Part shown: positions 23,572 to 61,273 of the stretch, one piece after another
How the letters are laid out: each line of letters opens with the position of its first letter
Numbering within the stretch: the stretch's first letter is position 1
Assembly: GCA_023264445.1 (NCBI GenBank)
Contig: JAHFMN010000003.1
Span: forward strand, 18,421-82,420
DNA from: Candidatus Kaiserbacteria bacterium
Lineage (GTDB): Bacteria; Patescibacteriota; Minisyncoccia; Phycocordibacterales; Phycocordibacteraceae
Length of the DNA: 64,000 nucleotides
Direction of reading: 5' to 3'
The notes under the pieces: model-generated
Databases searched by the model: none
Told to the model about the DNA's origin: nothing
Seen by the model: the letters and a program-made list of their open reading frames with translations, nothing else
Translations under genes and position numbers: made by a program

Positions 23572-23634
23572 AGTCGCGGCATTGTAGCTCGTATGCTTAT
23601 AAAACTCAATAATTCTGCCTTTGGTTGCCTGAAG

Positions 23635-26256: not shown

Positions 26257-26279
26257 TACGAGGTAGAATACAGCGGAAG

Positions 26280-26984
26280 ATGAAAAATCTCTATTGGGTC
26301 TTCTCCAAGCTCTCTCGGGTGAAGGATATCCCGCGGTACATAGTTGAACTGCCAAGCTACCTGCGAGGTTACGCATGCGCGACGACGCGGTGGGGAGATC
26401 GCATGAAGGTTCCCTTTCCGGAGTTCCGTTCGATAGTGGAGAAGGGATATATAACCGGGCATGGAGAAGAGGGAGTATACGAATATCTTGATTCGCACCT
26501 GACGGACAACGATATCTTCTTTGATGTGGGAGCGAACGCCGGATTCTATACGCTTCTTGCCAACCACAGGGGAGCGCGCGTCTATTCTTTTGAACCGTTC
26601 CCGAGCACGTTTGAGATGCTGCACGGAAACGTGCGCACCAATTGCAATGAAAAGCGCGTGACGATACTTCCCTATGCAGTCTCCGAGCATGAAGGTACCG
26701 TGCATATGCGCAAGATGCACACGGCAGGCGTCAACCTTGTTTCTCCGGACGGGAATGTACCGGTGCAGGCAATCAGCTTGGATGGATTCGATGTCGTGCC
26801 GACAGTCATGAAGGTGGACGTCGAGGGACACGAACTAAGCGTGTTCAAAGGAGCCCAGATTATGCTACGGAAACATATGCCAGCGATAATCGCGGAAGTA
26901 TCGCCCGAGTCCCGAGACTACCTCGTCTCGCTTGGCTATACGGCGACGCTCCTCGGCAAGACGAATTATCTCTTCAGCAGATAA
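26280..26984 (+). CDS. FkbM-family methyltransferase
   Basis: FFDVGANAGFYT...MKVDVEGHELSV, characteristic of Methyltransf_21/FkbM. Alternative start 26403. Confidence 0.7.
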   Translation: MKNLYWVFSKLSRVKDIPRYIVELPSYLRGYACATTRWGDRMKVPFPEFRSIVEKGYITGHGEEGVYEYLDSHLTDNDIFFDVGANAGFYTLLANHRGARVYSFEPFPSTFEMLHGNVRTNCNEKRVTILPYAVSEHEGTVHMRKMHTAGVNLVSPDGNVPVQAISLDGFDVVPTVMKVDVEGHELSVFKGAQIMLRKHMPAIIAEVSPESRDYLVSLGYTATLLGKTNYLFSR

Positions 26985-34152: not shown

Positions 34153-34199
34153 GAATCACATTCTACTTCATGCTAGGATGAACGCAATCAAAGCGTCCT

Positions 34200-38565: not shown

Positions 38566-38611
38566 ACAATATCGCGATTATGCTAACACAGAACTATGAT
38601 AGAGTCCTGTC

Positions 38612-39367
38612 ATGCAAACGACGCTTAGCGTGGTGATTCCGGCCCACAATGAAGAAGGTTCTGTTAGAGAAACGGTGAAGTCCATATCTGGCGCGCTCAC
38701 GCGGGAACACATTCCGTTTGAAATTGTCGTGGTGAATGACCACTCCACCGATGCGACAACAACCGTACTCGCCGAGCTCGTCCAAGAGATACCGCAACTA
38801 CGAGCCGTAGACAATAAACAGTTGCCGGGTTATGGAAGAACAGTCGTGAGCGGTATCAACGCCGCGCACGGCGACTATGTTGCCATTATGATGGCCGACC
38901 TCTCGGATGATCCAGAAGATCTCGTCCGTTTCTACCGAAAGGCACAGGAGACCGGAGCGGACTGCGTATTTGGTAGCCGATTCATAAAAGGCGGGGCGAC
39001 CTATGACTACCCTCAATTCAAATTATTGCTCAACCGTTTTGCCAATACGCTCGTGCGCGTACTGTTCGGCTTCCGCTATAACGACTGCACCAATGCATTC
39101 AAGCTTTTCAAGCGAGACACCCTTGAGGGATTGCGTCCTTTCCTTTCTCCGCACTTCAATCTTACGCTTGAATTGCCGCTTAAAGCTATCGTGCGCGGAT
39201 ATTCGTATGTCGTGCTTCCCAATTCATGGCACAACCGTAAAAGTGGTGTCTCAAAACTCAAGATAAAGGAGATGGGGAGCCGATATCTGTTCGTACTGCT
39301 GTATTGTCTCATTGAACGCCACTTCAGCCGTGGAGATTTTAAGAAAAGCGATCCAGTACTATCATGA
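38612..39367 (+). CDS. GT2 polyprenyl-phosphate sugar synthase (Dpm1-like), third copy
   Basis: LSVVIPAHNEEGSV...VVVNDHSTDAT...MMADLSDDP. Confidence 0.8.
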   Translation: MQTTLSVVIPAHNEEGSVRETVKSISGALTREHIPFEIVVVNDHSTDATTTVLAELVQEIPQLRAVDNKQLPGYGRTVVSGINAAHGDYVAIMMADLSDDPEDLVRFYRKAQETGADCVFGSRFIKGGATYDYPQFKLLLNRFANTLVRVLFGFRYNDCTNAFKLFKRDTLEGLRPFLSPHFNLTLELPLKAIVRGYSYVVLPNSWHNRKSGVSKLKIKEMGSRYLFVLLYCLIERHFSRGDFKKSDPVLS

Positions 39368-43922: not shown

Positions 43923-45020
43923 TCAGAGTACTTTCTTTTCCAAAAAGAGCAAATATTCGTGCGCGGTTTTTTCCCAAGAGAATTTTTTCGCCTGTGCATG
44001 CCCTTTTTCGATCATCTCTGCGCGCAATCTGCGATCGGAAAAGATCTTTTCCATAGCGCGGCTGATATCTTCGACATTATATGGGTCGACGAGTAACCCG
44101 GCATCGCCTGCCGCTTCGGGCAAAGACGATAGAGAAGAAGTGATGACTGGCGTACCGAGGTGCATCGCCTCCACTACCGGCATGCCGAATCCTTCGTTTA
44201 GCGAAGGGAAAACGAATGCTACTGCATGCATATAGTACGAACAGAGCGATTCTGTCGGCACATAGCCGACAAAAAATACATCGTTTCGTAATCCGTTTCT
44301 TGTAAGTTCTTCGGTCATTGAACGGTAGTATCCATCGCCCGTCTTACCGGCTATCACGAGCTTGCAATCGGCGTTCGTCCGCTTCTTGAATTGTATGAAC
44401 GCAGACACTATACCGTGTACGTTCTTGCGCGGTTTGACCCTTCCCGTAAAAAAGAAGTATGGCTTCATGTGTTCATCGACCGGCGGTGCGGTTTCCCTAT
44501 AGGGAGTCAAATCTTGAAAGCCGACATATATGATGGTAATGCTTCCTGAAGGGACCCTATAATACTTCATAATGTCCTGCATGGTAGCCTGCGAGATAGT
44601 AATGATTGAAGTGGCGCGACGGAAACATATCGGCATAAGGAGGTGATCGCGGACGAATGCCACTAGCTTATCTCCGAGTGAACCGGGGGTTATTTTTTGG
44701 CTCACCAATTCTGGGCAAATAGGCACCGCTTTGATACGACTCGGCAGTATAAGCGGTAAAAGCGGCGTAATGAACAAAAGCACGTCGATATCTTCCTTCG
44801 TCCATAAGAACCAGAATAATTTCCCCACTAGGCCTCGCGGCACAATAACGTTGCGTATCGGCACGTTCACCAGACCGCTTTGGATGGGGCGCGAAGAGTA
44901 GATGGTAAATTCGTGCTGTTTCCCCGCCGCCGGTAAGTGCTTCAAAAGTTCCCAAACCATATACCCCATGCCGGAGGCACCGGACTCTTCATAGGGTTCC
45001 GCGACAAATCCGATCTTCAT
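43923..45020 (-). CDS. GT4 glycosyltransferase
   Basis: 365 aa; C-terminal EGFGMPVVEAMHLGTPVI. Confidence 0.8.
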   Translation of the reverse strand: MKIGFVAEPYEESGASGMGYMVWELLKHLPAAGKQHEFTIYSSRPIQSGLVNVPIRNVIVPRGLVGKLFWFLWTKEDIDVLLFITPLLPLILPSRIKAVPICPELVSQKITPGSLGDKLVAFVRDHLLMPICFRRATSIITISQATMQDIMKYYRVPSGSITIIYVGFQDLTPYRETAPPVDEHMKPYFFFTGRVKPRKNVHGIVSAFIQFKKRTNADCKLVIAGKTGDGYYRSMTEELTRNGLRNDVFFVGYVPTESLCSYYMHAVAFVFPSLNEGFGMPVVEAMHLGTPVITSSLSSLPEAAGDAGLLVDPYNVEDISRAMEKIFSDRRLRAEMIEKGHAQAKKFSWEKTAHEYLLFLEKKVL

Positions 45021-45922
45021 ATTCCTTGTATGGTGCCTAGTATCGCAGGAATGAGATTCTGGAGCGAGTGATGCTTCCGAACGTACTCGGGACCTTCTGC
45101 CTCAAGCGGTTTGAGCGCTAGGTCATTCGTCCTGATGTGCAATCCGCAGGCAAGCGCTTCGAGCACGACCTTGTCCAAGCTTCCCGTCTCACTCGTATGT
45201 ATCAGATACGCGGCTCTGCGGTATTCATCACGCAATTGCGTTTGGGTAAGGCCACCCAGAAATTGAACATCAGCATGCAGGTCATAGGCCATGGCTTCCA
45301 AGTACGCACGCTCGGGACCTTCGCCTGCAATGCGCAACGCTCTTCCTTCCTGTACTGCCCGCTCTATAGCGAGGTCGTGACGCTTGCTCGGCATGAGTCG
45401 CCCAACAGAAAGAATCCAATTGCCGCGCGCAACGCTCTCATCAGGAGAAAAGAAATTAGTATCTATGCCGTGTCCCATCACGCGCACTTTTGAACTTGCA
45501 AGACGGAAACTTTCTTTTGATGCAGTGAAAACGACGTTTGAAAGAAAAGTCGCGATGCGAAGCTGTAGGTTGACGCTCTTGTGCGTATACCATAAGGCGA
45601 TGCGCTTATGCAGGAGACGCCAGAGAGGACCGGCGACAACGATATATTCCGGATTCATATGCACGAATACGGCATCATATTCGTGTCGGAGTTTCCACGC
45701 CAAGTATTTGAATCGCATAGCGTAGGTGAGTGCGGAGGATCTTCCCTTCTCCTTTCCGAGCGAGTGCACCCGTACGTTTGCCGGCAGTGTATGAGTACCT
45801 TCATACAAACATATGACCTCCACGCGCTTCGTGTGTCTTGCGAACTCTTCTACCCAACGCACGAAGAATCCAAGATCAGAATCCCCGGCATCAACTACTT
45901 GTGTGCAGATGAGTAATTTCAT
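45017..45922 (-). CDS. GT4-like glycosyltransferase (short)
   Basis: 301 aa; DKVVLEALACG motif region. ATGA overlaps on both sides. Confidence 0.65.
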   Translation of the reverse strand: MKLLICTQVVDAGDSDLGFFVRWVEEFARHTKRVEVICLYEGTHTLPANVRVHSLGKEKGRSSALTYAMRFKYLAWKLRHEYDAVFVHMNPEYIVVAGPLWRLLHKRIALWYTHKSVNLQLRIATFLSNVVFTASKESFRLASSKVRVMGHGIDTNFFSPDESVARGNWILSVGRLMPSKRHDLAIERAVQEGRALRIAGEGPERAYLEAMAYDLHADVQFLGGLTQTQLRDEYRRAAYLIHTSETGSLDKVVLEALACGLHIRTNDLALKPLEAEGPEYVRKHHSLQNLIPAILGTIQGI

Positions 45923-47004
45923 ACGTGAGATTCAAGCCAGTCTACAAGATTCCCGACGACGGCGTGCGGGGAAAAGTCGCTCTCCGAGCGTGCACGAGCC
46001 CGCTCCCCGAGCCGACCGCGCAAGGTTGGATCACGCTTCAACGCGATAATTTTCTCCGCAAGGGCGGCGGCATCCCCAGGCGGTACCATGCACACGTCCT
46101 CTCCATCGTGGAGCATCTCAAGTGCCGCCGGTGAGCGTTCGGTAATCACCGGCTTCCCGCAACTCATGCATTCGTACACCTTATTTGGAATGACGCGGAG
46201 CGCCTTTTCGGATGTGCCGAATATGCCAAGACACACGTCGCCACGCGCAATGGAGTGCGGAAGCTCCTGCAGGGGGCTCCTATCGAGGAACTTCATGTTC
46301 GTAAGGCCAAGCTGTTCCGCCAAGCGGGTCATGGCGGCAAAAAGCTGTCCCATGCCGGTCATCTCGAAATGCACCTGTTCTCCGCAGTCCTGAATAATCT
46401 TTGCCGCATGGATGATGTGTTCTACGCCTTGGAGGGGACTGAACCCTCCGTGGAATTCAACGATGAAACCGTCGCCGGGTGCCTGCAAAGAAGGCAATGG
46501 TTTGAAAAGGTCAGAACGGCATCCGACGCGCGCAACGATTATTTTTCCCGGACTCACGAAAAACCGTTCGGCGAAAAATCTCTTGTGCTCAAGCGTATCC
46601 ACGACGATAGCATCGGCAAGAAAGCAGGATATGGCGTCCGCGCTCCAGAGAAACCATGCGCGCGGACTGAAGCGCGAGACGCGTTTTCGATCATTGACCT
46701 CGGTGTCGTACTGCGACACGAGCGTATCGAGAATTACCGGAATCCCCCGCCGGCGTGCGAGAAACCACGCAAGCGGCATGAGGTAGTACCCCATAAAAAT
46801 GACATACACCGCATCGACAGGGCTAGTGATTTCATTCCATTTCCGATAGAGGTCTCGATACTTTGCGAAAAATCCGTTAACGAGTGTCTGGCAACGCTGT
46901 ACCTCGATACCGCGCTCAACGAGTCCTGTCCGTATCGCCCATGCCCGCCCGCCCTCGTCCTGCTCATCGAATCCGAAGAAACAGACGGAAAGTTGTTTTT
47001 TCAT
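45919..47004 (-). CDS. GT4 glycosyltransferase
   Basis: 361 aa; NKVYECMSCGKPVI region. Confidence 0.75.
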   Translation of the reverse strand: MKKQLSVCFFGFDEQDEGGRAWAIRTGLVERGIEVQRCQTLVNGFFAKYRDLYRKWNEITSPVDAVYVIFMGYYLMPLAWFLARRRGIPVILDTLVSQYDTEVNDRKRVSRFSPRAWFLWSADAISCFLADAIVVDTLEHKRFFAERFFVSPGKIIVARVGCRSDLFKPLPSLQAPGDGFIVEFHGGFSPLQGVEHIIHAAKIIQDCGEQVHFEMTGMGQLFAAMTRLAEQLGLTNMKFLDRSPLQELPHSIARGDVCLGIFGTSEKALRVIPNKVYECMSCGKPVITERSPAALEMLHDGEDVCMVPPGDAAALAEKIIALKRDPTLRGRLGERARARSESDFSPHAVVGNLVDWLESHV

Positions 47005-48140
47005 ACCTTCTGCAACGCGCGTTGAAGGTCATCTCGGATGCGCTCCACGAGATTCCCCTGTGCTGCAAGATGCGCGCGTGCGGTCGCTTCAGCATGAATC
47101 GGCAGCTGGAGCCGCACCGAGGTGTCTTCGATAAATCCAACGATGGCAAGCGAGAGCGCCGTAGGGTCGGCGACTGGCACGGCAAGCACATCTTCGTATC
47201 CTTTGAACACTTCACCGACGATCCCGACATCAGTCGTGATAATCGGGACTTTGGCGAGCGCCGCTTCGATGAGCGTGCGGCCGTACCCTTCGTACGCACT
47301 CGCTTGGATAAATGCTTGTGCATGCGCCATCAAACCTCGCGCGTCCGAACGATTGCCAAGGAAAACAACGTTATTCGTGAGACCAAGTGAACGCGTCATA
47401 CGTTCGAGTTTTCCGCGCTCGCTTCCCTCCCCAGCAATGAAGAGTCCGACCATCGGATAGTGTGCTACCACGAGCTTGAGGGCGGCAAGAATATCTTCAA
47501 TGCGTTTTTCCGGCTCGAGACGCCCGACTGCAATGAGCGCGAAGGTAAATGCGGGGTGCACGGGCAATCGCACAGGAGCAGGTGATGCTGCGTCAACTGC
47601 GATCGGGATGACTGATGGCTCGGGAATGTGGGAGCCGTACCTCGCGATGAGCGATTCTTTAATGCGCTCGGAGACGACGCGGATGCCGCTTGCCGCCGGT
47701 AAAACGCGATCGGCGAAACGCTGGCGGAAGCGATTCAAAAGCGGCATGCGCACGGAGGGCGAACGCCAATTGCCGCGCCTCGTGAACCATGAGGAAAGGA
47801 AATCCGTGTGTACTTGCACATGAAGCTTTGCGCTCGTCCCTCGGATGGCTCGAAGCGCGGCAAGACCATGCTCAAAAGGATCCTGTGCGGAGACGATATC
47901 AATTCCCTGCTCCAGAATGAGCGCATGGGCGCGCTTCTCAAGCGCTCGCATCCGAAACGGCTTCCAGGAATACACGGGGTAGAGAAACAGGTTCCCGTCC
48001 TGCGCTTCGCGCGCGCCTGGACGCGCGGAAGATACGATATGCAGTGTGCCTATTTCCGCGGCATACACGCGCATGCGCGCGCGAGCCGCACTCGCTTCAT
48101 CGAATATGGTCGGGTCGTTCGAGATGAAAAGGACTTTCAT
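47001..48140 (-). CDS. GT4 glycosyltransferase
   Basis: 379 aa; EGYGRTLIEAALAKVPIITTD. Confidence 0.8.
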   Translation of the reverse strand: MKVLFISNDPTIFDEASAARARMRVYAAEIGTLHIVSSARPGAREAQDGNLFLYPVYSWKPFRMRALEKRAHALILEQGIDIVSAQDPFEHGLAALRAIRGTSAKLHVQVHTDFLSSWFTRRGNWRSPSVRMPLLNRFRQRFADRVLPAASGIRVVSERIKESLIARYGSHIPEPSVIPIAVDAASPAPVRLPVHPAFTFALIAVGRLEPEKRIEDILAALKLVVAHYPMVGLFIAGEGSERGKLERMTRSLGLTNNVVFLGNRSDARGLMAHAQAFIQASAYEGYGRTLIEAALAKVPIITTDVGIVGEVFKGYEDVLAVPVADPTALSLAIVGFIEDTSVRLQLPIHAEATARAHLAAQGNLVERIRDDLQRALQKV

Positions 48141-49150
48141 AGAGAATGTGTGAGAAGCGATGCAGTGAGCTCAACCATGCGCGAAGATGAGAACACTTCT
48201 CTGTTCTTTTGTGCAAGTTGAGCACGATTCTTAGCCGCGCCTGGATCATGTTCCGTATTTGTCAGCGCTTCTTCAAGTGCGTCATCATCCTTCGACGGGA
48301 TAAGAATTCCCGTCTTTCCATTCTCGATAAGAAAAGGGTTTCCGCCTACATTCGTAGCGATGACAGGAGTACCGAGCATCATCGCTTCAATGAGCACATG
48401 CGAGAGGCCTTCATAGGTGGAATTGAGCACGAACACATCGGCTGCTTGCATCCAAGCAAGCATTTCGATGCGCGGAAGTCCAGATGCGATGAATACTTGC
48501 CAGTGGGGATGTTTTTCCGCTACGCACTCGATCGCTTCAAACCCTTTCCACGGGACACGCCGGCCAGCAGAAACGATAAGGAATTTCCCTTCCTCTTTTT
48601 CGCGAACAGGAATCTCTTTCGGCAATTCGACGCTGTTGTAAATCGGGACAATCTTTTCCTCCGAGACTCCCCAATGCGAGACGATGCCCTTAAGGTACGG
48701 GCTCGGCACGATGATTTTTACCGCTCCCTTCGCAACACGGGTCTGGATTTTCTGAAGCAACTGCACGAACAGCGATCTCTGCTTAGTACGTACGAATTCA
48801 TCGAGTTCCTGGGTCACGCCAAAGCGCTGTCTGCCCTGCTCCCAAGCATAATCGCCAACTATTTTCACGATGAGCGGTTTCTTGAGCTTCTTAGCCGCGC
48901 AATGCGCTGGATACCCGACCGATACTGGATCGAGCGCAAGAACGGCATCCGCATTGCGGAGCGCTTTAAGCACGCGGCGGTAATAGACATAATGCCGCAG
49001 AAACTTTGGCAAGTGCCGGACCTCCGAGAACTTTACGATGGAAATATCCTTAATTCCGTGAGATGGCAGACCTTTCTCAAGCTCTTTGATATAGGTCGCT
49101 GGCCCGCCTATCTCGGGCGGGTACAGCGGCGTCGCAATAACAAGTCTCAT
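48137..49150 (-). CDS. GT4 glycosyltransferase
   Basis: 337 aa; EGLSHVLIEAMMLGTPVIATN. Confidence 0.8.
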   Translation of the reverse strand: MRLVIATPLYPPEIGGPATYIKELEKGLPSHGIKDISIVKFSEVRHLPKFLRHYVYYRRVLKALRNADAVLALDPVSVGYPAHCAAKKLKKPLIVKIVGDYAWEQGRQRFGVTQELDEFVRTKQRSLFVQLLQKIQTRVAKGAVKIIVPSPYLKGIVSHWGVSEEKIVPIYNSVELPKEIPVREKEEGKFLIVSAGRRVPWKGFEAIECVAEKHPHWQVFIASGLPRIEMLAWMQAADVFVLNSTYEGLSHVLIEAMMLGTPVIATNVGGNPFLIENGKTGILIPSKDDDALEEALTNTEHDPGAAKNRAQLAQKNREVFSSSRMVELTASLLTHSL

Positions 49151-50367
49151 ATACCCAGTGTAGCGAATAATGACTGCATTTGTTTTGTGATAATAGTCCA
49201 GTCATACTTTTCTTGAACCATTTTCTTCGCAGTGATGGTCACTTCCTTTGCCTTCTCCGGATGTGCAACTATGTCCTGCACCGCTTCCGCTATCTGCTTG
49301 GGCGAGTCCTTATCTACTGCCCAGCCAGTCGTTTCCGTATCAGGATTGCGCTTCGCGTCAAAGAGGAAATCTGCGATGCCACCCTCTTGTGTCCCGATGA
49401 CCGGCAATCCGGCCACCATCGCCTCTATGAAAGAGTTTCCCATACCTTCGGAGCGTGATGGCCGGATGAAGATATCGCACGCACTAAATACAAGCGGTAT
49501 ATCGGGATGCTGAAGCTGTCCCTTGAAATGAACGCGGGAAATGAGACCAAGTTCCTTTGCAAGATGTTTCAGCATGGATTCGCTGGGGCCAATGCCATAC
49601 ACGAGGAATTGTATGTTGTCCGGCATCAGCTGGAGTGCACGTATCACGTCATCAATACCGTTCTTGTGCACCAATCTCGATGTCGTGACGAGGAATATGT
49701 CGCCGGGATTCTTGGAAAGCTTTTCTCGCATCGAGCTGATTTCTTTTTCCGTATGGGCATGGGCAAAATGCCGTGCATCGACGCCGTTTGGAATCACTTC
49801 CGCATGCCCTGCAAATCCCATGCGGCGACCCCATGCGAGGAGGAAATGAGAGATACATTGAAGCCCATCTGCTTTCGTGAAGCCGCGTTTGAAAAGCGGC
49901 CATACCGGTAGTGCAAGTCGTTCTATATACCGCGGTGGATCGCCTTCCTGGAGCGTAAGCAGATACGTTACTTCTGGATGGAGCGTCTTAAACATGCCGG
50001 CCGGAATGCCGCACGAATGCGCCATCATCGCCCAGATACCATCGAAATGGTATTCGCGATGGAGCCGCGAAGCGATAAACGGCGTCACGAACTGGAACCA
50101 ATATTTATTCAGGAAAAGCGGGAATTTCTTTAGGTCTTGTATGGTCGGCGATGGTCTCGAGAATCCGATTCGGTGCACTATCACATTCCCTACCTTCTCC
50201 GTTCTTGGCAGCTTCGAGTCGAATCGGAGCGTTATCATGTGAAATTCAAACTCTTCCGGAGAGAGCCGGTCAGTAATTTCTTTTATCGCGACTTCCGCTC
50301 CGCCAACGAAATTCGGATAATACGCGAGTGAGAAGATGAGGATCTTCTTGACCTTTTTATCTAACAT
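49147..50367 (-). CDS. GT4 glycosyltransferase
   Basis: Start at MLDKKVKKILIFSLAYYPNFVGGAEV (50367); C-terminal EGMGNSFIEAMVAGLPVI. Confidence 0.8.
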   Translation of the reverse strand: MLDKKVKKILIFSLAYYPNFVGGAEVAIKEITDRLSPEEFEFHMITLRFDSKLPRTEKVGNVIVHRIGFSRPSPTIQDLKKFPLFLNKYWFQFVTPFIASRLHREYHFDGIWAMMAHSCGIPAGMFKTLHPEVTYLLTLQEGDPPRYIERLALPVWPLFKRGFTKADGLQCISHFLLAWGRRMGFAGHAEVIPNGVDARHFAHAHTEKEISSMREKLSKNPGDIFLVTTSRLVHKNGIDDVIRALQLMPDNIQFLVYGIGPSESMLKHLAKELGLISRVHFKGQLQHPDIPLVFSACDIFIRPSRSEGMGNSFIEAMVAGLPVIGTQEGGIADFLFDAKRNPDTETTGWAVDKDSPKQIAEAVQDIVAHPEKAKEVTITAKKMVQEKYDWTIITKQMQSLFATLGI

Positions 50368-50392
50368 TGTCCCTATGATAACCTCTTCCGTA

Positions 50393-50433
50393 CAAAAAAA
50401 GAAACGCACGGGACTTGGGGTCCAATGCGTTCC
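50393..50433 (-). terminator. Candidate intrinsic terminator after the epimerase-fusion gene
   Basis: On the minus strand: imperfect hairpin (aacgca...tgcgtt around ggac/gtcc) followed by TTTTTTT. Lies between the 50547 stop and the GT4 array start. Confidence 0.4.
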
Positions 50434-50546
50434 TATTACGGGAGAATTTCGTCTCACCATCTTTCCTTCCACCTGCCGATCTCGAAATCTTTCGCGAAAT
50501 AATCTCAGGCACGACGTATGGCTCCAACGATCAGAGCTGCACCTGC

Positions 50547-51992
50547 TTATTTCTTACTCATATTACGCAGGATGGCAGAATACGCGAAGCGGATCTGGTT
50601 GGCGAAGGAGTCACCCGCACCGAGTGATTTACGAGCGCGCATACGCTTCTCGAGTGAGAGAAGTTTCTCACCCTGCTCGGGAGTCGAGGTGTAGACCTGG
50701 TCAGTCTGCGAGAGAATAAGGCGTAGGAAGAGCCGCTCGTACCACGAGAGCGATTGGTCGGCGAGCGTCACCAGAAGCGGGATGAGCTTCCCTTTCCGCA
50801 CGATGAGCGCAGGGAGCGTGCCGTAGCTCGCCATAATAGACCATGAGAAGAGGTACCTATGTTTGTCGGCCAGATTGAGCGCTTTACTGGTTCCGAGAAA
50901 TGGCAGGAGGAACTTATCGAAGCGATTACCGAAGCCAACGCGATACACCGTGCCATTAGGGACGATACAGGGAATACCAAGTGCCTCTTTTGCATGAGCG
51001 GCGGTGATGATATCGAAGTGCACATCGGGCATCTTCTCCATGAGTTCGCAGAGTGCATCCTCGGCAGGACCCGAGATAGGGTGAAAGGTGGTGGTGAAGA
51101 CGAGAATACGCTTCTCGGGTGCGGGCTCAGGTTTAGCATCTTTCACGAACGCTGCGATATCGTCAGCAAGCGAGCGACGTGGTGCCCAGCCCAGCTGACG
51201 CGTCTTTTCGGTATCCACCATTGCCTGCATACGATTCCCTTGCCGTTCAGGAAGCATGACGACATCCCTTCCGAACAGTTTTGCGAGCCCAAGAATAGAG
51301 AAGGTGTCATTGCTTCCGATGCCATAGCCGTCACCGACTCCCTTCTCTCCAACCAAAACGAGACCGTCGACGATATCGTGCACGTGCGTAAAGATGCGCT
51401 CCTGTGTACCAGGAGCGACCACACCGAGCGAAAGCCCACGGCGGTACTGTTCTTTAAAAATAGCGACGACCGTCCCCATCGCACCAGTGCGTTCGTTCGG
51501 TCCATACACATTATAAAAATAGGTGATCGCGTAGTTAATGCCGAACCAATCGCCATAATTTCTCACGAGCTCGGTCATACTTGCCTTGCTCCATGCATAG
51601 GGGCTCTGATCGCGCCCGAGACCACCATCGCTGAACTTAGTGGAGGAGCCGGCGTACACGAGCTTCGCTCCGCGACGACGAGCGAATTCGAGCACCGCAA
51701 AGGTGCCATATTGATTTAAGTCCCACACCTGCTCTACGTCTTCAAAACTCTTCTCGACGCGTGAGTATTCGCCGAGGTGAAAGATGAGGTCGGGTGTCTC
51801 GGGAATGTGCTTTTCGATATCCTTGGTATGACCTTCGCGATAGTCTACGCCCGGGACATGATTCTCTCGGCTTCCAGCAAAGTAGTTGTCGAGCGAGATG
51901 ACTTTGTGACCCTCTTTTATCAGACGCGTGCAGAGATGCGTGCCGATGAAGCCCGCGCCACCGGTGACGAGGATTATTTTTTTATCCGCCAT
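50547..51992 (-). CDS. NAD-dependent epimerase/dehydratase (UDP-glucuronate decarboxylase-like) fused to a ~180 aa C-terminal domain resembling a GT4 N-terminal half
   Basis: ILVTGGAGFIGTHL...YAWSKAS (YxxxK) for ~300 aa, then ILVFTTTFHPISGPAEDAL... The unusual fusion gives 481 aa. Confidence 0.7.
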   Translation of the reverse strand: MADKKIILVTGGAGFIGTHLCTRLIKEGHKVISLDNYFAGSRENHVPGVDYREGHTKDIEKHIPETPDLIFHLGEYSRVEKSFEDVEQVWDLNQYGTFAVLEFARRRGAKLVYAGSSTKFSDGGLGRDQSPYAWSKASMTELVRNYGDWFGINYAITYFYNVYGPNERTGAMGTVVAIFKEQYRRGLSLGVVAPGTQERIFTHVHDIVDGLVLVGEKGVGDGYGIGSNDTFSILGLAKLFGRDVVMLPERQGNRMQAMVDTEKTRQLGWAPRRSLADDIAAFVKDAKPEPAPEKRILVFTTTFHPISGPAEDALCELMEKMPDVHFDIITAAHAKEALGIPCIVPNGTVYRVGFGNRFDKFLLPFLGTSKALNLADKHRYLFSWSIMASYGTLPALIVRKGKLIPLLVTLADQSLSWYERLFLRLILSQTDQVYTSTPEQGEKLLSLEKRMRARKSLGAGDSFANQIRFAYSAILRNMSKK

Positions 51993-52031
51993 AGTATGAG
52001 ACTAGTATAAAAAAGGTTGAAATGCGAACTA

Positions 52032-53423: not shown

Positions 53424-55190
53424 TCAGGATTCTCCTTTGAGCACGTTGCGGAGCGCATCTTCGGGAACTTCAAACGGTTTCTTTTCTTCCGCTGCTGGCT
53501 TTGGCATTTCCTGCTTTCTGCTTTCCACTTTCTGCTCTTTAGGTGGTGCCTCCTGCTTGTTTTTCTGAAGCACCTCGGCAAGTGCTCCCTTGAGCGACTG
53601 CTGCTGCTGTTCTTGCTTCTTTTCCTTTTCTGCACCAGTCTTCGCGGCCATAGTGCGCAAGATTGACTTCAGGTCTTCAGCGCTCTTTGATGGCGGCGCT
53701 GGACGATTGATTGGAGGGCGGGGTACAAAATCACGACGCTCCTCCCGCTCAGGCGAACGCGGTACAGAAGGGCGGTAGGGCGGAACTTCGGGAGCTCTCT
53801 GCGGAACACTTGGCATCTGGGCTGCAAACGGCTTTGGCGCGGGAGGCAAGGGCGCCGGTTTCCGCTTCATCCGCGCATCGCGTGGCGCTTCGGACGCGGC
53901 GCTTGCGGCAAGCTCGTCGATAATCGATTTCTCGATGCTTGCGCGCGGTGCGGTAAACTGCTTGCGCGAAGAGGCAATGACCTGCTCCCTATAAGAAACA
54001 GGTGGCGCCTCTATGGGCGGGATCGTCACCGCGGAAAATGGAGCTGACCCGACGCCGTCTATCATGAGCGTCAGGTATATCTGCCGGCGGTCGAGACCGA
54101 CCACGTCCTCCTTTGTGAATCGGGGCATGAAAATAGTTTCAAGCACCTCGGCATCGAACGGTCCGACGCGAAAGACGACTGTGGTGCCGACGTTGCCGAA
54201 CACGGCATCGCGCACCTCTTCTTCCATCTGCTCGATGTATTGGTGCGCGATGACAAGGTTCAGTTTATATTTGCGAGCTTCGGAAAGTATTTCTGCGAAC
54301 GTTTCGTTCGCGAAGTTCTGGAACTCGTCAACATAAAAATAGAGATGCGGAAGTCGCGTAAGCTCGGGTGCGGCAAGGTTTGCCCTACTCATCGCCGCGA
54401 GAAAGATGCGCGTTGTAAGCATCGAGCCCAAGAGGCGCATATTGGTCTCGCCGACGAGTCCTTTGGAGAGATTGATGATGAGGATCTTCTTTTCGTCCAT
54501 CATCGTACGGATGTCAAAGGAAGATTTCGGCTGACCGATGATGTTCCGGATGAGCGGATTGCCGGTGAACTGCCCGATTTTGTTCTGGATGGCAGGGGTC
54601 GCTTCTTGGGTATACCGGTCGCCGTAATTTGCGAATTCCTTTGTCCAGAAATCCTTTACGACCGGGTCCTTCACGTTATCCACGACCTTTGTTCGGTACT
54701 CCTTATCGGTATACATGCGATTCACACCAAGTAGAGTTGCATCCGGATACTCGAGGAGGGCAAGGAGCGTATTCGTAAGGATGTATTCCATGCGGGCGCT
54801 CCACGCGTCTTCCCATATCTTCTTGAAGGTCGCCATGAGGCCGCTTACCACGAGGTGGCGTTTGTCATAGCCGACGTCCTCCATCACATTGAAGGCAATA
54901 GGGTGCTCGAGATCGAAGGGAGCGAAGTAGACGACATCTTTTATTCGGTTTTCGGGAATGTATTCGAGGAGTCGCTCAACGGTGCCGCCATGCGGGTCGA
55001 TAAAGGCGAGCCCTTCGCCATTCCTGATATCCTGAATCGCCATATTCTCGAGCAAGGTGGACTTGCCCATACCGGTCTTGCCGATGACATACATGTGGCG
55101 ATCGCGGTCTTTTGACTTGATGCCGAAAGGGACATACTTTCCCCGCGCGTCAGTCGCCGCGAAGTAAGTCACGCGCTCGGGATTCTCCAT
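53424..55190 (-). CDS. P-loop NTPase of the TraD/TraG/VirD4 coupling-protein (AAA_10/DUF87) type with disordered Pro/Lys/Glu-rich C-terminal tail
   Basis: Walker A VIGKTGMGKST, Walker B LYFYVDEFQNF; C-terminal ~170 aa low complexity (PAPLPPAPKP...EKEKKQEQQQQ). Confidence 0.6.
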   Translation of the reverse strand: MENPERVTYFAATDARGKYVPFGIKSKDRDRHMYVIGKTGMGKSTLLENMAIQDIRNGEGLAFIDPHGGTVERLLEYIPENRIKDVVYFAPFDLEHPIAFNVMEDVGYDKRHLVVSGLMATFKKIWEDAWSARMEYILTNTLLALLEYPDATLLGVNRMYTDKEYRTKVVDNVKDPVVKDFWTKEFANYGDRYTQEATPAIQNKIGQFTGNPLIRNIIGQPKSSFDIRTMMDEKKILIINLSKGLVGETNMRLLGSMLTTRIFLAAMSRANLAAPELTRLPHLYFYVDEFQNFANETFAEILSEARKYKLNLVIAHQYIEQMEEEVRDAVFGNVGTTVVFRVGPFDAEVLETIFMPRFTKEDVVGLDRRQIYLTLMIDGVGSAPFSAVTIPPIEAPPVSYREQVIASSRKQFTAPRASIEKSIIDELAASAASEAPRDARMKRKPAPLPPAPKPFAAQMPSVPQRAPEVPPYRPSVPRSPEREERRDFVPRPPINRPAPPSKSAEDLKSILRTMAAKTGAEKEKKQEQQQQSLKGALAEVLQKNKQEAPPKEQKVESRKQEMPKPAAEEKKPFEVPEDALRNVLKGES

Positions 55191-55238
55191 TAGTATTCAG
55201 TATAACAAATCCCGCTTGACGCAGGATTTACATACACA

Positions 55239-55460
55239 TCAGATGGGAGAAATTTCGGAGGGAGGAGTTGGTTCGGATGTGGGAGCTTCCTTGGGCGGCT
55301 GTGCGCTTTTGGCCTCCCGTGCACGAAGCATGAGACCGATGCCGAGAATGGAGGCACCGCATGCAACGGTAAGGAGCGAGCGGAGCGCCATCGGGAGGCC
55401 TGAAAACGGCGTAATGAGCGTCAGAATACCAAGGACGATGAGTGCGCTGGTGCGGGACAT
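55239..55460 (-). CDS. Small membrane protein (2 TM) with Pro-rich tail, hypothetical
   Basis: 73 aa ORF filling the gap between rsmI and the ATPase; hydrophobic helices LIVLGILTLITPF and ILGIGLML. Confidence 0.35.
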   Translation of the reverse strand: MSRTSALIVLGILTLITPFSGLPMALRSLLTVACGASILGIGLMLRAREAKSAQPPKEAPTSEPTPPSEISPI

Positions 55461-55472
55461 GGAAAAAGTATA

Positions 55473-56138
55473 TCAGGGTGTCACGATGACGACAAACTCA
55501 CCCCGTATCGTGTCTGGATGCGAAGCGAAATGGGCAGACACGTCTTGCGGCGTGCCCGAAACAACCTCTTCATGAATCTTCGTAAGCTCGCGGGCGACGG
55601 TAATGCGCGATACGCCTTCCAATTCTTTCAGCAGCTTCTCTATACGGTGCGGTGACTCATAGAGCACCACCGGTATTTCGCTCACAACAATCTTCTTTAA
55701 CGCTGTCTGACGACCCTTCTTGTGGGGCAGGAATCCAAGAAAGGTAAAAGCGGTAGCATCCAGTCCGGCGATAGAAAGCGCAGTCGCGAGCGCAGAAGGA
55801 CCCGGTATCGCTTCAATCTTTGCGTCAGGCAATTCCTTGCGTACATGTGCAACAAGACGCGCACCAGGGTCAGAGATGCCTGGGGTGCCCGCGTCGCTTA
55901 CGAACGCGACACGCTCGCCATTCTCAAGGCGAGCGATGACCTCATCAGCCTTCTTGATTTCCTTCGCCGCATCAAGCCGCTGGAGCGGCTTTGCAATGGA
56001 GTAGCGCGCAAGAAGCTTCGAGATGACGCGTGTGTCTTCGGCATATATCACATCGCATTCTTTCAGCGTCCGCAAAGCACGGAGCGTAATATCCTCCAAA
56101 TTTCCTATCGGCGTCGCGACGATCGAGAGCGTTCCCAT
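55473..56138 (-). CDS. rsmI: 16S rRNA (cytidine1402-2'-O)-methyltransferase
   Basis: MGTLSIVATPIGNLEDITLRA...DAGTPGISDPG, canonical RsmI/tetrapyrrole-methylase fold. Confidence 0.9.
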   Translation of the reverse strand: MGTLSIVATPIGNLEDITLRALRTLKECDVIYAEDTRVISKLLARYSIAKPLQRLDAAKEIKKADEVIARLENGERVAFVSDAGTPGISDPGARLVAHVRKELPDAKIEAIPGPSALATALSIAGLDATAFTFLGFLPHKKGRQTALKKIVVSEIPVVLYESPHRIEKLLKELEGVSRITVARELTKIHEEVVSGTPQDVSAHFASHPDTIRGEFVVIVTP

Positions 56139-56139
56139 A

Positions 56140-57408
56140 TTATGTTGTCACTAACTCATCAGCGACTTTATAGATGTCGCCGGCACCCATCGTTATCACT
56201 GTGTCGCCCTCCCTCGCTTCGCTTAGAGCTTTTAGAATTGCATCAAATGAGAGAGCTTGTGTACTCGTACCGGTCGCGCGAATGCGCTCGGCAAGTATCT
56301 CGCTCGAGATAGAACCATCGTCTGCCTCGCGGGCGGCATAGATGGGGGCAATGTAGACTTGATCAGCATCGCTGAAAGCAGCTGCGAATTCATCAAGCAG
56401 ATCTCGTGTGCGGCTGTAGAGGTGGGGATGGAAGGCAACGATGATGTTTCCTTTTGCTTGTGCGCGAAGCGCCTTGAGCGTTTCTCGCACGGCCGTCGGG
56501 TGGTGTGCATAGTCGTCGTACACGTCTGCCCCATTTTTATTTTTTCCTTTGTATTCAAATCGGCGCCACGTGCCGTGGAAATCAGCGAGAGACTCGGCGA
56601 TGGTCGCATCTGAAATCATTGGGAGCACGGCACGGGCGGCGGAGGCAGCCGCTCGTGCATTATTCTGATTAAACTCTCCCGGCAAACGGAGGTCGTATGC
56701 GGTCTCCTTGGTGTAATCGACCACGCGCGCTTTTGCGCCCGCCAAAAGGGAAGTGATGTTTCTATTATTTTGGTCCGTTACGATTGCTCCGTCTGCGGGC
56801 ACCCGCTCAATCGCTTTCTTAAATGTTTCCTGAAGGGAAGTGAGAGAGGGGAAATAGTCGGTATGGTCCCATTCGAGATTCGTGATAACTAAAACCTTCG
56901 GCGATAATTCGAGCAAATGGTCCTTGTATTCGCACGCTTCTACCACAAGCATGTTTGCATCTCCATGAAGATAGTTCGATTGGAAGTCCTTCACGATCGA
57001 GCCGATAATTGCGGTCTCGTTTGCCCCAGCATCGTGGAGAATCTTGGCGAGCATTCCTGTCGTCGTGGTCTTGCCGTGAGTCCCAGCGACTGCAATCGTA
57101 TACCTATCTGCCGATACCTTTCCGAGCATTGCAAAATACGACATTTGTGGTGTCCCCAGTTCGGCTGCGCGAACGCGTTCAGAGTTATCCACAGGTACCG
57201 CATCGCTGTAGACGACCATCTCTGCGTCGGCTGGAACATTTTCTGCCTTCTGCCCGATAGACACCTGTATTCCCTTCTTTTCAAGCAGATCGGTAGTAGG
57301 GCTTGCTTCCCTATCCGATCCGGTTACGGATGACCCGTGATCAATAAAATATTGCGCGAGCGCGCTCATCCCTATCCCCCCGATGCCGATGAAGTAGATT
57401 TTCTTCAT
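56140..57408 (-). CDS. murC: UDP-N-acetylmuramate--L-alanine ligase
   Basis: IYFIGIGGIGMSALA...AVAGTHGKTTTT...; 422 aa. Confidence 0.9.
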   Translation of the reverse strand: MKKIYFIGIGGIGMSALAQYFIDHGSSVTGSDREASPTTDLLEKKGIQVSIGQKAENVPADAEMVVYSDAVPVDNSERVRAAELGTPQMSYFAMLGKVSADRYTIAVAGTHGKTTTTGMLAKILHDAGANETAIIGSIVKDFQSNYLHGDANMLVVEACEYKDHLLELSPKVLVITNLEWDHTDYFPSLTSLQETFKKAIERVPADGAIVTDQNNRNITSLLAGAKARVVDYTKETAYDLRLPGEFNQNNARAAASAARAVLPMISDATIAESLADFHGTWRRFEYKGKNKNGADVYDDYAHHPTAVRETLKALRAQAKGNIIVAFHPHLYSRTRDLLDEFAAAFSDADQVYIAPIYAAREADDGSISSEILAERIRATGTSTQALSFDAILKALSEAREGDTVITMGAGDIYKVADELVTT

Positions 57409-57986
57409 GGATAATTGGGCAGCGTATCGGGTCGATAGTCGAAATGGAAATACTCACGTTTCGTACCGATACGGAAACCGTTAAGCATCATTAATTTACC
57501 GAGATAGTCTTGTAATTCCTGGCATTGCTGTGACCCTTCGTCTTTTTTATTTTTATAAAAGTCGATGAAGAGCGCTGGTACACCATCTTCGCTACGCCGC
57601 ATATGAATTTCTTTATTTTCTTTGGTATCCCAGATCGCTACGTCTACCGAAAGACCAAGAGCGTGGGGCATTGTATTCATATTTAGGATGGAGTCTGTTA
57701 CTTCTTTACCGTATTTCTCCACGCGCCGCTGGTATACGATTTTGTAGATTTCCTCCGATCGATACCCTTCTTTTATGTATAAACGCCATCCTTTTTCTTG
57801 GAGTTTTTGGTCTATCGCCGCCAGTTTATCAATAATTTGCTTGCTCACCCGAACTCGATCATCTTTAAGGCCAGCTTGCATAATATCCTCCTTAGTAAGG
57901 CCGTGTGTAGCGTATTTATGCCAATAAAAATTGCTACCGAGGAGGCCATAGTCGTCTATATATACGAGGTCGGTAGGCGTGGTCAT
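57405..57986 (-). CDS. M15-family zinc metallopeptidase (VanX/D-Ala-D-Ala dipeptidase or LD-carboxypeptidase-like)
   Basis: HALGLSVD (HxxGxAxD) motif and 193 aa size. GC content clearly lower (about 43-45%) than the flanking ~60%. Confidence 0.6.
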   Translation of the reverse strand: MTTPTDLVYIDDYGLLGSNFYWHKYATHGLTKEDIMQAGLKDDRVRVSKQIIDKLAAIDQKLQEKGWRLYIKEGYRSEEIYKIVYQRRVEKYGKEVTDSILNMNTMPHALGLSVDVAIWDTKENKEIHMRRSEDGVPALFIDFYKNKKDEGSQQCQELQDYLGKLMMLNGFRIGTKREYFHFDYRPDTLPNYP

Positions 57987-59293
57987 AGCTTCCCTACTAT
58001 CGCATTGAACTGGTCGCCGCGATCATACTCGTTCTTGAACATACCAAAGGAGGCGAAGGCGGGAGAAAAGAGAATGGTGTCGCCCAACTCGGCAGAGGAG
58101 AAAGCTTCAGCTATGGCTTTATCAAGAGTATCAAAGACAGAGGCGCCGGGAATAAATTCAAGTACGCGACTCGTACCAGTCCCCGCGAGCAGGATAGTGC
58201 GCTTCACCCCCCCAAGCTTTGCGAGAAGCGCATTCATATCAAGGCCCTTATCTGCGCCGCCCATGATAAGTACCGTTCGCGCTGGGTCGAGTGCCGCGAG
58301 CGCGGCAAGGGTCGCTTCGGGCGTGGTCGCAGTGGTGTCGTTGTAAATTTTGACCCCATTCACTTCCCTCACGAGTTCGAGCCGGCCGGGGACGCCCTTA
58401 AATGATTCAAGCGTCTTACGGCTTATCGAGTCGTCAATATCGAGTGTGCGAGCGACAGCGAGCGCGAGGGCAGCATTGTAGCGGTTATGGAGGCCCGGGA
58501 CACGAAGCGTCCACGTGTCAGGAAGCTTCGTCTCGTCTACCACGAGCGTTTTTGACTCTATCTGCTCTCCGTATCTATCAATGACTGTCGGCGCGCATTG
58601 TTTACCCAAGATGAGTGTGTCTTCTGGCTTCTGGTATAAAAAGATATTCGCCTTGTCAGCAAGATATACGTCAATATCGTTTTTATAATAGTTCAAATGG
58701 TCGGGATACAGTGTTGTGAAGACTGCAATATGCGGACTCATCCTCGCCTCACCGAAGCCCTGGCACTGCCACGAATCCAGCTCGAGAACTGCGACGTGTT
58801 GGGAAGTCGTTTCTGGCAAAAGAGAAAGTGTAGAGACGCCGCGCACATTTCCGCCAAGCAATACCTTCTTCCCTGCCCCTTTCAAGATGGCATGAATCAT
58901 GTGCGCTACGGTTGACTTGCCGCGGGTACCCGTCACGCCGATTATCGGAATCCCAGAAATTTCTGCGAAGAGGTCCGCGCTCATGCGTACCGGTATCTCA
59001 TGCTTCTTTGCCTCCGCGATATAGGGAGAATCAAGCGGCACGCCGGCCGCTTTCAGAATGAGATCGCGATTATTAAAATCTTCCAGCCGGTGCTCGCCAA
59101 GAACGAACGTGATGTTTGTAAACTGTTCAAGCTGGGCAACCGATTCAGCGAGCTCCTCGCGCGACTTCAAGTCAGTCACAATAAGCTCCGCTCCGCACTC
59201 CGCGAGATAAGCGGCATCGCCTACGCCTCGACCCAAAAGGCCGAGTCCCATGATAGTTATCTTTTTGCCCCGAAAATGAGATGAGGCGTCCAT
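57983..59293 (-). CDS. murD: UDP-N-acetylmuramoylalanine--D-glutamate ligase
   Basis: MDASSHFRGKKITIMGLGLLGRGVG...GVTGTRGKST...; start set at 59293 because the longer ORF-track start would overlap tRNA-Ile. Confidence 0.88.
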   Translation of the reverse strand: MDASSHFRGKKITIMGLGLLGRGVGDAAYLAECGAELIVTDLKSREELAESVAQLEQFTNITFVLGEHRLEDFNNRDLILKAAGVPLDSPYIAEAKKHEIPVRMSADLFAEISGIPIIGVTGTRGKSTVAHMIHAILKGAGKKVLLGGNVRGVSTLSLLPETTSQHVAVLELDSWQCQGFGEARMSPHIAVFTTLYPDHLNYYKNDIDVYLADKANIFLYQKPEDTLILGKQCAPTVIDRYGEQIESKTLVVDETKLPDTWTLRVPGLHNRYNAALALAVARTLDIDDSISRKTLESFKGVPGRLELVREVNGVKIYNDTTATTPEATLAALAALDPARTVLIMGGADKGLDMNALLAKLGGVKRTILLAGTGTSRVLEFIPGASVFDTLDKAIAEAFSSAELGDTILFSPAFASFGMFKNEYDRGDQFNAIVGKL

Positions 59294-59298
59294 GTGGG

Positions 59299-59371
59299 TG
59301 CACGCTCTAGGAGTCGAACCTAGGACCGCCCGAGTATCAGTCGGGTGCTCTACCAACTGAGCTAAGCGTGC
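59299..59371 (-). tRNA. tRNA-Ile (anticodon GAT)
   Basis: Manual fold: acceptor GCACGCT/AGCGTGC, D-arm GCTC-AGTTGGTA-GAGC, anticodon arm CCCGA-CTGATAC-TCGGG (GAT), T-arm CTAGG-TTCGACT-CCTAG, discriminator A. CCA not encoded. Confidence 0.9.
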
Positions 59372-59408
59372 ATCTGTGGATATTATCAAAAAACCTCTTT
59401 AGTTTCCA

Positions 59409-59447
59409 CTCAAACAAAAACACCCTTCTCGGGCGTTTTTGTTTGAG
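59409..59447. repeat. 39-nt near-perfect palindrome with flanking A- and T-runs in the 16S-tRNA spacer
   Basis: ctcaaacaaaaac-a-ccc-ttctc-ggg-c-gtttttgtttgag; terminator-like in both orientations. Confidence 0.7.
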
Positions 59448-59452
59448 TTTAA

Positions 59453-59488
59453 GAAAAGATGTGATGCGCTCTTTTGTTCCGCCTATTC
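59453..59488 (-). promoter_or_regulatory. 3' half of the 16S rRNA processing stem (pairs with 61105..61139)
   Basis: gaaaagatgtg...cttttgttccgcctattc is the exact reverse complement of 61105-61122 plus 61129-61139, bracketing the 16S gene. Confidence 0.7.
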
Positions 59489-59639
59489 TGTCTCGCTTGA
59501 GAGCTCATATGTGGCTCTCAAACGACCACCGGATTACGTTCCCCGGCACTCGAGCATCGGTTAGAGACGAATGCTATCTCTCGTGATTCTTTCGAATCAC
59601 ATCGACATGATTTTCCTTTCGGGAAAATCGGTTCCAATT

Positions 59640-61102
<1,463 letters not shown>

Positions 61103-61104
61103 AA

Positions 61105-61139
61105 GAATAGGCGGAACAAAAGAATTCACACATCTTTTC
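61105..61139 (-). promoter_or_regulatory. 5' half of the 16S rRNA processing stem (leader)
   Basis: Complementary to 59453..59488. An adjacent perfect hairpin gcccggcac-tcgc-gtgccgggc lies at 61141..61162. Confidence 0.7.
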
Positions 61140-61273
61140 TGCCCGGCACTCGCGTGCCGGGCGTTCACGTATGTAATTGTCAAAAAACATTCCGGGAAAC
61201 AAAAAGAACTCCTACGAGTCCGTCTTTGCTTCGACGTCCTGCCTACCTACTCTCTTCAGGTGGCAGTAAACCT

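Follow-up and report, generated by a model that had tools for sequence, protein, structure and literature searches.

How are translation starts chosen in a bacterium whose 16S rRNA ends without the sequence that pairs with mRNA leaders? This question is raised by a stretch of 64,000 nucleotides from Candidatus Kaiserbacteria bacterium (assembly GCA_023264445.1, contig JAHFMN010000003.1, positions 18,421 to 82,420 of the forward strand), referred to below as the window, in which a 16S rRNA gene carries a 3' tail without the CCUCC core of an anti-Shine-Dalgarno (anti-SD) motif. In the present analysis, we found that this core has been lost from the 16S 3' tail in the whole clade and that the mRNAs are without Shine-Dalgarno (SD) motifs. 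Taken with this clade-wide loss, the results make it likely that starts are chosen through leaderless or near-leaderless mRNAs together with translational coupling, while the tail has been kept as the arm of a hairpin.

Loss of the anti-SD core and absence of SD motifs

The window stems from an uncultured bacterium of the Parcubacteria/Paceibacteria type within the Candidate Phyla Radiation (CPR). Its 16S rRNA gene belongs to the CPR type, and the relevant parts of the gene are the following.

59638..61105, minus strand: full-length 16S rRNA gene, CPR-type, 1468 nt (Rfam RF00177, 1352 bits, model positions 1-1533)
59651..59674, minus strand: intact helix 45, formed by CACGGGUAGC and GCUGUUCGUG around a GGAA loop (from the sequence and the cmscan structure line)
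59638..59650, minus strand: 3' tail GAACAUAUCCAAA, for which the canonical counterpart is GAUCACCUCCUUA (cmscan alignment)

The RNA strand directly 3' of helix 45 reads GAACAUAUCCAAAUUGGAACC. In the cmscan alignment, model positions 1520-1533 (GAUcACCUCCUUu) align to GAACAUAUCCAAA, the alignment runs contiguously to the model end, and the position of the CCUCC core is taken by UAUCC at 59645..59641 on the minus strand. The original prediction, made from the letters of the window alone, had described a tail that lacks the canonical CCUCC behind a helix 45 with its GGAA loop, and the alignment returned the same reading of the tail. The site given there, 59630-59660, was the right one, but it was numbered along the plus strand although the gene lies on the minus strand. 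The possibility raised with that prediction, that a CCUCC lies further downstream, found no support: CCTCC was detected neither among the final 60 nt of the gene nor in the 266-nt trailer up to tRNA-Ile, and the trailer is enclosed by a pre-16S processing stem.

SD motifs were then counted upstream of called starts. The window gene set consisted of codon-usage-scored open reading frames (ORFs) with starts set by rule, which gave 56 curated starts. Because start calling was crude and the anti-SD-positive comparison loci were poor positive controls for SD, 50 kb of E. coli K-12 was passed through a common crude pipeline for the SD-core comparison. SD cores preceded 12.7% of the called starts in the window versus 9.2% of internal ATGs, whereas the identical pipeline found them at 45% of starts versus 5% of internal ATGs in E. 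coli. This clearly positive control indicated that the pipeline could detect SDs and that none were present here. GGAGG was equally frequent upstream of the 56 starts (1.8%) and of internal in-frame ATGs (1.8%), and duplex energies to the canonical anti-SD were no better at window starts than at controls (Mann-Whitney p=0.90). None of the genes named in the original prediction has a GGAGG-like element 5-10 nt upstream of its start, as had been stated. For the lineage of the window, 361 non-redundant starts were collected from 120 metagenome contigs with the window-type tail, and SD cores were again not enriched (12.7% versus 12.0% in controls). The motif scan that had been proposed as a check thus gave no enrichment in either set with a positive E. 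coli control, and it supports the suggestion of SD-independent initiation drawn from the missing anti-SD and SD motifs; what replaces the SD had not been stated there.

To examine the distribution of the loss, GTDB species genomes were scanned with a helix-45 pattern (AAGTCGTAACAAGGNNNNNGTAGCGGAAGCTG). The scan returned at least 120 loci and was less lineage-specific than intended; the matches listed were mostly from Actinomycetota or Chloroflexota and were reused as anti-SD-positive comparison groups. Among the matches listed with the helix-45 type of the window, 27/27 loci were without CCUCC, and their names include Paceibacteria/Paceibacterota, Taylor-, Ryan-, Jorgensen- and Nomurabacteria, Minisyncoccia and "Parcubacteria group". 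Their tails resemble GGAAUAAUUCAAUUUGAAA or GGAUUAAUUAAAUUU, and two of them carry the window's own GGAACAUAUCCAA. The canonical GGAUCACCUCCUUU is kept in Magasanik-, Uhr-, Falkow- and Moranbacteria and in all non-CPR matches listed (Actinomycetota, Chloroflexota and others). A CPR-like group with the anti-SD retained was defined by a CA-initial helix-45 stem and comprised 30 loci; its CPR-named members were Magasanik-, Uhr-, Falkow- and Moranbacteria and "Patescibacteria group", and the rest bore non-CPR or uninformative names and were taken as mislabelled.

The start of the window tail, GCUGNUCGUGGAACAUAUCC, was recovered in at least 120 metagenome contigs, whose 16S sequences are 84-100% identical to that of the window, and GAACAUAUCC was strictly conserved among the lineage contigs listed over this range of identity. 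The window tail is a stable character of a sizeable sub-lineage. Since it is common to the whole lineage, it is neither a sequencing error nor a pseudogene.

Loss of the motif in this clade has been reported before. In the available part of Tsurumaki et al. 2022 (RNA 28:1041; PMC9297842), no more than 48% of Parcubacteria were found to carry the CCTCCT motif, the motif-less members overlapped the group without uL1, and SD helices were judged probably not to form. The core finding is therefore not new in view of that part of the paper: the Parcubacteria subgroup described there, with CCUCCU missing in about half, is the same clade with the same trait, and the window is one more member of this known Parcubacteria/Paceibacteria clade trait. 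Genes for ribosomal proteins do not occur in the window. The same part of the paper treats motif presence or absence only and contains no gene SD statistics, replacement mechanism, tail or trailer structure, or sub-lineage tail types such as GAACAUAUCC. Paceibacteria mostly lack Era, the protein that recognises GAUCACCUCC (PMC10582724, PMC12641178), and its absence removes another constraint on the tail.

Promoter spacing, gene packing and the choice of starts

On inspection by eye, a TAnnnT box stood close before the ATG in several first-in-operon genes of the window. In the lineage, part of the genes with an intergenic start carried a promoter-like box at a fixed distance from the start codon. 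TANNNT stood at exactly -12 in 61/250 of these genes (24%) versus 15/1317 internal-ATG controls (1%), with an odds ratio of 28 and p about 1e-37, and shoulders were seen at -13 (10%) and -14 (6%). The other anti-SD-less Paceibacteria loci gave a sharp peak at -12 as well (18% versus 1%), and the profile was flat in the anti-SD-positive CPR loci. The Actinomycetota-rich group also showed the -12 peak (9%). Leaderless genes are expected in Actinomycetota, so this group served as a positive control. When the lineage sequences were aligned on the box, positions outside the selection read T-5 in 63%, T-3 in 44% and G-2 in 73%, and the consensus was TRTGn-TAtAcT, an extended -10 element ("-16 region") with a weak TTG at 17-nt spacing. 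The start codon was ATG in 99/100 box-associated lineage starts. In these 24% of the lineage intergenic-start genes the extended -10 box TRTGnTAnnnT ends 6 nt before the ATG; a -10 hexamer at this distance would make transcription begin at the A of the start codon, which is the standard genomic signature of leaderless mRNA. Within the window, where the sample was small but consistent with this, a box began at -18..-11 in 6/20 intergenic starts versus 13/338 controls (p=2e-4). The following individual sites were recorded.

55458..55495, minus strand: TTGTCG-17-(TG)TATACT, then 6 nt, then ATG 55460 of a 73-aa ORF (promoter scan)
55188..55204, minus strand: TATACT from -14, ATG 55190 of a VirD4/TraD-like ATPase gene
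51990..52009, minus strand: TATACT from -17 and TAGTCT from -12, ATG 51992
34150..34165, minus strand: TAGAAT from -13, ATG 34152
38595..38614, plus strand: TATGAT from -17 and TAGAGT from -12, ATG 38612
26264..26282, plus strand: TAGAAT from -16, ATG 26280
23569..23586, minus strand: TACAAT from -15, ATG 23571 of a pseB-like gene

The second line of evidence is gene packing. The genes from 777 to 59293 lie nearly all on one strand and are tightly packed. The frequent ATGA overlaps remarked on in the original prediction were confirmed at 13/47 same-strand junctions of the window, and in 32/47 (68%) the start lies within -11..+8 nt of the upstream stop. In the lineage, the -4 overlap was the commonest close spacing (36/111). 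The following run is an example of such tight coupling.

43923..50472, minus strand: run of six genes with five consecutive ATGA overlaps (downstream starts 45020, 45922, 47004, 48140 and 49150)

Start regions of closely spaced genes were weakly folded, at -4.9 and -5.2 kcal/mol versus -7.5 kcal/mol in controls (p<=4e-6). Tight spacing and weak structure fit re-initiation by terminating ribosomes, for which an SD is needless at such short distance.

These results suggest two routes to a start codon. At promoter-proximal genes, the extended -10 element (TRTGnTAnnnT) would direct transcription to begin at the A of the ATG or no more than a few nt away from it, and the ribosome would load, in a 70S- and IF2-dependent manner, at the 5'-terminal AUG of the resulting leaderless or near-leaderless mRNA without an SD. 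Downstream genes of an operon would be initiated by ribosomes that have just reached the stop codon of the preceding gene. Nothing relevant was found in the literature searched that links leaderless initiation with CPR or Parcubacteria. What is new here is a testable mechanism, combining leaderless extended -10 promoters with operon re-initiation, and a structural explanation for the conservation that the tail still shows.

Several observations weigh against this mechanism. The boxes in the window are spread from -12 to -17, which indicates leaders of about 0-6 nt and not strictly none, and a box at -12..-14 was present in only about 40% of the lineage intergenic-start genes. Start calling followed a crude longest-ORF rule with ATG preference, and GTG/TTG made up 35% of starts in the class of other intergenic starts, which suggests miscalls. 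A generic sigma-70 two-hexamer scan of the window performed no better than shuffles (12 versus 12.4), and only individual sites were used. The suggestion of leaderless transcripts is drawn from promoter-to-ATG spacing alone, and the sample comprises 64 kb of one genome plus loci of relatives that all adjoin the rRNA gene. In addition, perfect GGAGG at 5-8 nt spacing occurred in about 2% of lineage genes (10/361 versus 5/1317, p=2e-4). The genes concerned are small hypothetical ORFs at seven loci, for which Pfam gave no match; recent horizontal transfer may have left them as relics, or the ORFs may be spurious.

The anti-SD-positive groups also bear on this point. SD cores in the two comparison groups stood at 16.5% versus 10.5% and at 7.7% versus 10.1%, and the second pair belongs to the anti-SD-positive CPR loci (30 loci, 156 crude starts), a result to be taken with caution given the weak signal of the high-GC anti-SD-positive group with the crude pipeline. 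The absence of enrichment in these CPR loci indicates that anti-SD loss alone is not what abolishes SD use, and SD disuse, as judged from these start regions, may be older than the anti-SD loss. If low SD use in anti-SD-positive CPR holds genome-wide, the SD would have fallen out of use first and the anti-SD would have decayed afterwards, with the tail then constrained only as an arm of a pre-rRNA hairpin.

The same observations leave some room for a dominant mode of initiation that is not leaderless, in which 30S subunits would bind unstructured or A/U-rich leaders with S1, in a Bacteroidetes-like or standby-like manner, and the -10 boxes near the ATG would be a minority feature. Such a mode would accommodate the roughly 60% of lineage intergenic-start genes without a box at -12..-14, the significantly weaker structure at the starts of closely spaced genes, the enrichment of AT-rich k-mers upstream of starts in CPR loci, and the fact that anti-SD-positive CPR loci likewise show no SD enrichment. 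However, no A-rich positional signal was seen at -3 or elsewhere upstream in the window, and the AT-rich k-mers resolved to a sharp -10 hexamer peak plus TRTGn instead of a diffuse A/U tract. Furthermore, intergenic starts were not clearly less structured than controls (p=0.05), and many box-less starts were probably miscalled, given their 35% of GTG/TTG. We therefore regard S1-dependent loading on A/U-rich leaders as an unlikely dominant mode and prefer leaderless or near-leaderless initiation combined with coupling.

The tail as a hairpin arm in the pre-16S trailer

The sequence of the tail is not random. The pre-16S RNA contains the following structures around the tail.

59633..59643, minus strand: mini-hairpin UCCA-AAU-UGGA, with the old anti-SD register as 5' arm and the spacer as 3' arm
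59609..59629, minus strand: conserved trailer hairpin GAUUUUCC-CGAAA-GGAAAAUC, in which the stem covaries and the CGAAAG loop is constant (lineage contigs, compared by eye)
59601..59608, minus strand: conserved trailer box AUGUCGAU, with GUCGAU in nearly all lineage trailers
61105..61140, minus strand: pre-16S processing stem, 5' strand, which directly adjoins the 5' end of the 16S
59452..59488, minus strand: 3' strand of the processing stem, complementary to the leader at 61105..61140

The mini-hairpin was recovered across tail types. In tails of the window lineage, a UCC(A)/(U)GGA stem of at least 3 bp in fixed register was present in 59/59 unique tails versus 13% of shuffles. In canonical tails, CUCC(U) pairs with GGAG or GGGAG 4-5 nt downstream in the spacer (97% versus 9% shuffled). 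In the other Paceibacteria, 56% of tails versus 15% of shuffles had a stem of 4 bp or more in the same register, such as UUCA/UGAA or UUAA/UUAA. Because pairing was kept in the same register across tail types, the old anti-SD arm has changed jointly with its spacer partner, and this pairing explains the residual conservation of the tail.

Further downstream, a variable hairpin with a GNRA-type loop follows 3' of the GUCGAU box in the lineage (structured region 59583-59629 in the window; loci L122-L241). The trailer segment GAAUAGGCGGAACAAAAGA and the leader segment UCUUUUGUUCCGCCUAUUC are exact reverse complements, and the pairing of 61140..61105 with 59488..59452 includes a perfect 19-nt match. 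The resulting leader-trailer stem encloses the 16S and about 165 nt of trailer, with no anti-SD inside. Between the processing stem and tRNA-Ile lies another hairpin of about 17 bp, CUCAAACAAAAACGCCC-GAGAA-GGGUGUUUUUGUUUGAG, at 59409-59447 on the minus strand.

These structures point to a tail that would be freed from the constraint of mRNA pairing and would still form a small hairpin, as its 5' arm, with the adjoining spacer. This hairpin would sit within a structured pre-16S trailer closed by a long stem, and it probably still serves in rRNA 3'-end processing. The variable loop that follows UCC, at about 59640..59637, is probably where the mature 16S ends.

A more far-reaching reading would join the trailer to initiation itself. 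All or part of the structured trailer (mini-hairpin, CGAAAG hairpin and GUCGAU box) would stay on the mature 16S as a 3' extension at the mRNA-exit/platform site of the SD helix and would provide a new handling of 5'-terminal AUGs; more broadly, Paceibacteria would be bacteria of the free-living type in which initiation has converged on the mitochondrial solution, with no anti-SD, leaderless mRNAs and a reduced ribosome. We consider this joint reading doubtful and give it little credence.

The conservation of the tail could also be taken to mean that the anti-SD has changed and is not lost, so that the tail AUAUCCAAA... pairs with a co-evolved SD such as GGAUAU or UUGGAU. The strict conservation of GAACAUAUCC at 84-100% 16S identity does argue for some constraint, but the hairpin accounts for it, and the tails of sister lineages are quite different, for example AAUUCAAUUUGAAA. 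GGAT, GGATA, GATAT, TGGAT and TTGGA were not enriched upstream of starts in the window or in the 361 lineage starts, and the duplex energy of starts to their own 13- or 21-nt tail was no better than that of internal ATGs (p=0.97). With motifs unenriched and duplex energies at control level, an SD complementary to the new tail was rejected. In 128 anti-SD-less taxa, no co-evolved pair of SD and anti-SD was found (Amin et al., PMC6107228). A changed anti-SD is thus highly improbable here.

It is hardly credible, finally, that a canonical anti-SD was missed, whether in another rRNA operon, past an insertion or at another mature 3' end, or that this 16S copy is a pseudogene or assembly artefact: one 64-kb window was covered and CPR 16S genes often carry insertions, but the cmscan match is contiguous to the model end and scores 1352 bits over the full length, no CCTCC lies between helix 45 and tRNA-Ile, the tail was independently assembled in at least 120 contigs and in GTDB metagenome-assembled genomes, and SD motifs are absent, as expected without an anti-SD.

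Known systems and neighbouring genes

Previous studies have reported, for other phyla, that SD motifs are missing where the anti-SD is lost and that a compensating SD does not arise (Lim et al. 2012, PMC3457768; Amin et al. 2018, PMC6107228). The taxa in those studies include some Flavobacteriia, insect endosymbionts (Carsonella, Sulcia, Blattabacterium) and hemotropic mycoplasmas, and the loss-bearing phyla named there do not include CPR. As in those taxa, CCUCC has degenerated here to A/U-containing variants, SD is absent, and the losses cluster by clade. Unlike the present case, they are mostly AT-rich, and A-rich or unstructured leaders have been proposed for them as the alternative; the genome studied here has 54% GC and a -10 box at leaderless spacing.

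A -10 box about 6-7 nt before the start, a preference for AUG and a dispensable SD are shared with the leaderless-rich Mycobacterium, Streptomyces, Deinococcus and haloarchaea. Those organisms retain the anti-SD and use the SD on leadered mRNAs, whereas here the anti-SD is gone altogether. The genome-wide scarcity of SD motifs recalls Bacteroidetes, where they are also largely absent. Bacteroidetes generally retain an anti-SD that is sequestered in the ribosome, and their starts lie in A-rich Kozak-like contexts. In contrast, the anti-SD is absent here, and no A enrichment was seen at -3 or neighbouring positions in the window. A further likeness concerns mitochondria. Mammalian mitochondrial mRNAs are leaderless or nearly so. 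The small-subunit rRNA of mammalian mitochondria is without an anti-SD (PMC10582724), and the pattern of ribosomal-protein loss in CPR resembles mitoribosomes according to the available part of Tsurumaki et al. (PMC9297842). Unlike in mitochondria, the genome here is a free bacterial one that contains operons and sigma-70-type promoters, and the organism has no mitochondria-specific initiation factors or mitoribosomal proteins. The mitochondrial resemblance is one of analogy, not homology.

The absence of SD has practical consequences. Gene finders with models of the ribosome-binding site will mis-set starts in such genomes, and the distance between -10 box and ATG could serve in their place. 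SD-less initiation must likewise be allowed for when Paceibacteria genes are expressed in other hosts and in any future genetic tools for the clade.

Downstream of the 16S gene, the window contains a tRNA gene followed closely by a cell-wall gene.

59295..59372, minus strand: tRNA-Ile(GAU) downstream of 16S (ARAGORN; Rfam tRNA, 72.9 bits)
57983..59293, minus strand: murD (TIGR01087, 326 bits against a cutoff of 212, alignment from residue 11)

tRNA-Ile followed 16S in all lineage loci in which ARAGORN called a tRNA within 1.2 kb of the tail (69 plus the window). The ATG of murD (59293) lies 5 nt past the discriminator base of tRNA-Ile (59299), so that there is no room for an SD and the tRNA is the sole possible "leader". 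No promoter-like box was found between tRNA-Ile and the murD ATG, and the murD mRNA may arise from the 16S-tRNA transcript through 3' processing of the tRNA. An identical 436-aa murD gene call is present on an ENA contig. A lineage-wide arrangement of murD behind tRNA-Ile was considered and rejected; the junction in the window is unique among 69 loci, and the downstream gene varies. The motif TTATACCCA(Y)G was observed a few to tens of nt downstream of tRNA-Ile at nine lineage loci (L126, L159, L180, L182, L190, L197, L200, L208 and L225), and the tRNA/murD junction of the window, GCACCCACAUG, resembles it.

One gene name of the original prediction calls for correction: beside the tRNA lies murD (57983-59293) and not murC, which is at 56140..57408. 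Between the two is a 193-aa ORF with no family match. The gene that it called an ATPase, at 53424-55190 on the minus strand, encodes a VirD4/TraD-like type IV coupling protein, with NCBIfam/Pfam matches that all lie below the curated cutoffs. This gene adjoins murD, murC and rsmI, of which murD and murC are cell-wall genes.

The Rfam gathering scan gave no 23S or 5S rRNA in the 64-kb window. Since the 16S gene is followed by tRNA-Ile and then by protein genes, the rRNA genes appear unlinked. On the 5' side of the 16S gene, a terminator-like hairpin (61356-61322, minus strand) is followed by a candidate rRNA promoter, TTGACG-17-TAGTAT (61302-61274). Within the gene, the site of the 515F universal primer (about 60640-60660, minus strand) reads GUGCCAGCAGGAGCGGUAAUAC, not ...CAGCCGCGGUAA; with this variant site, standard amplicon primers would probably miss the lineage.

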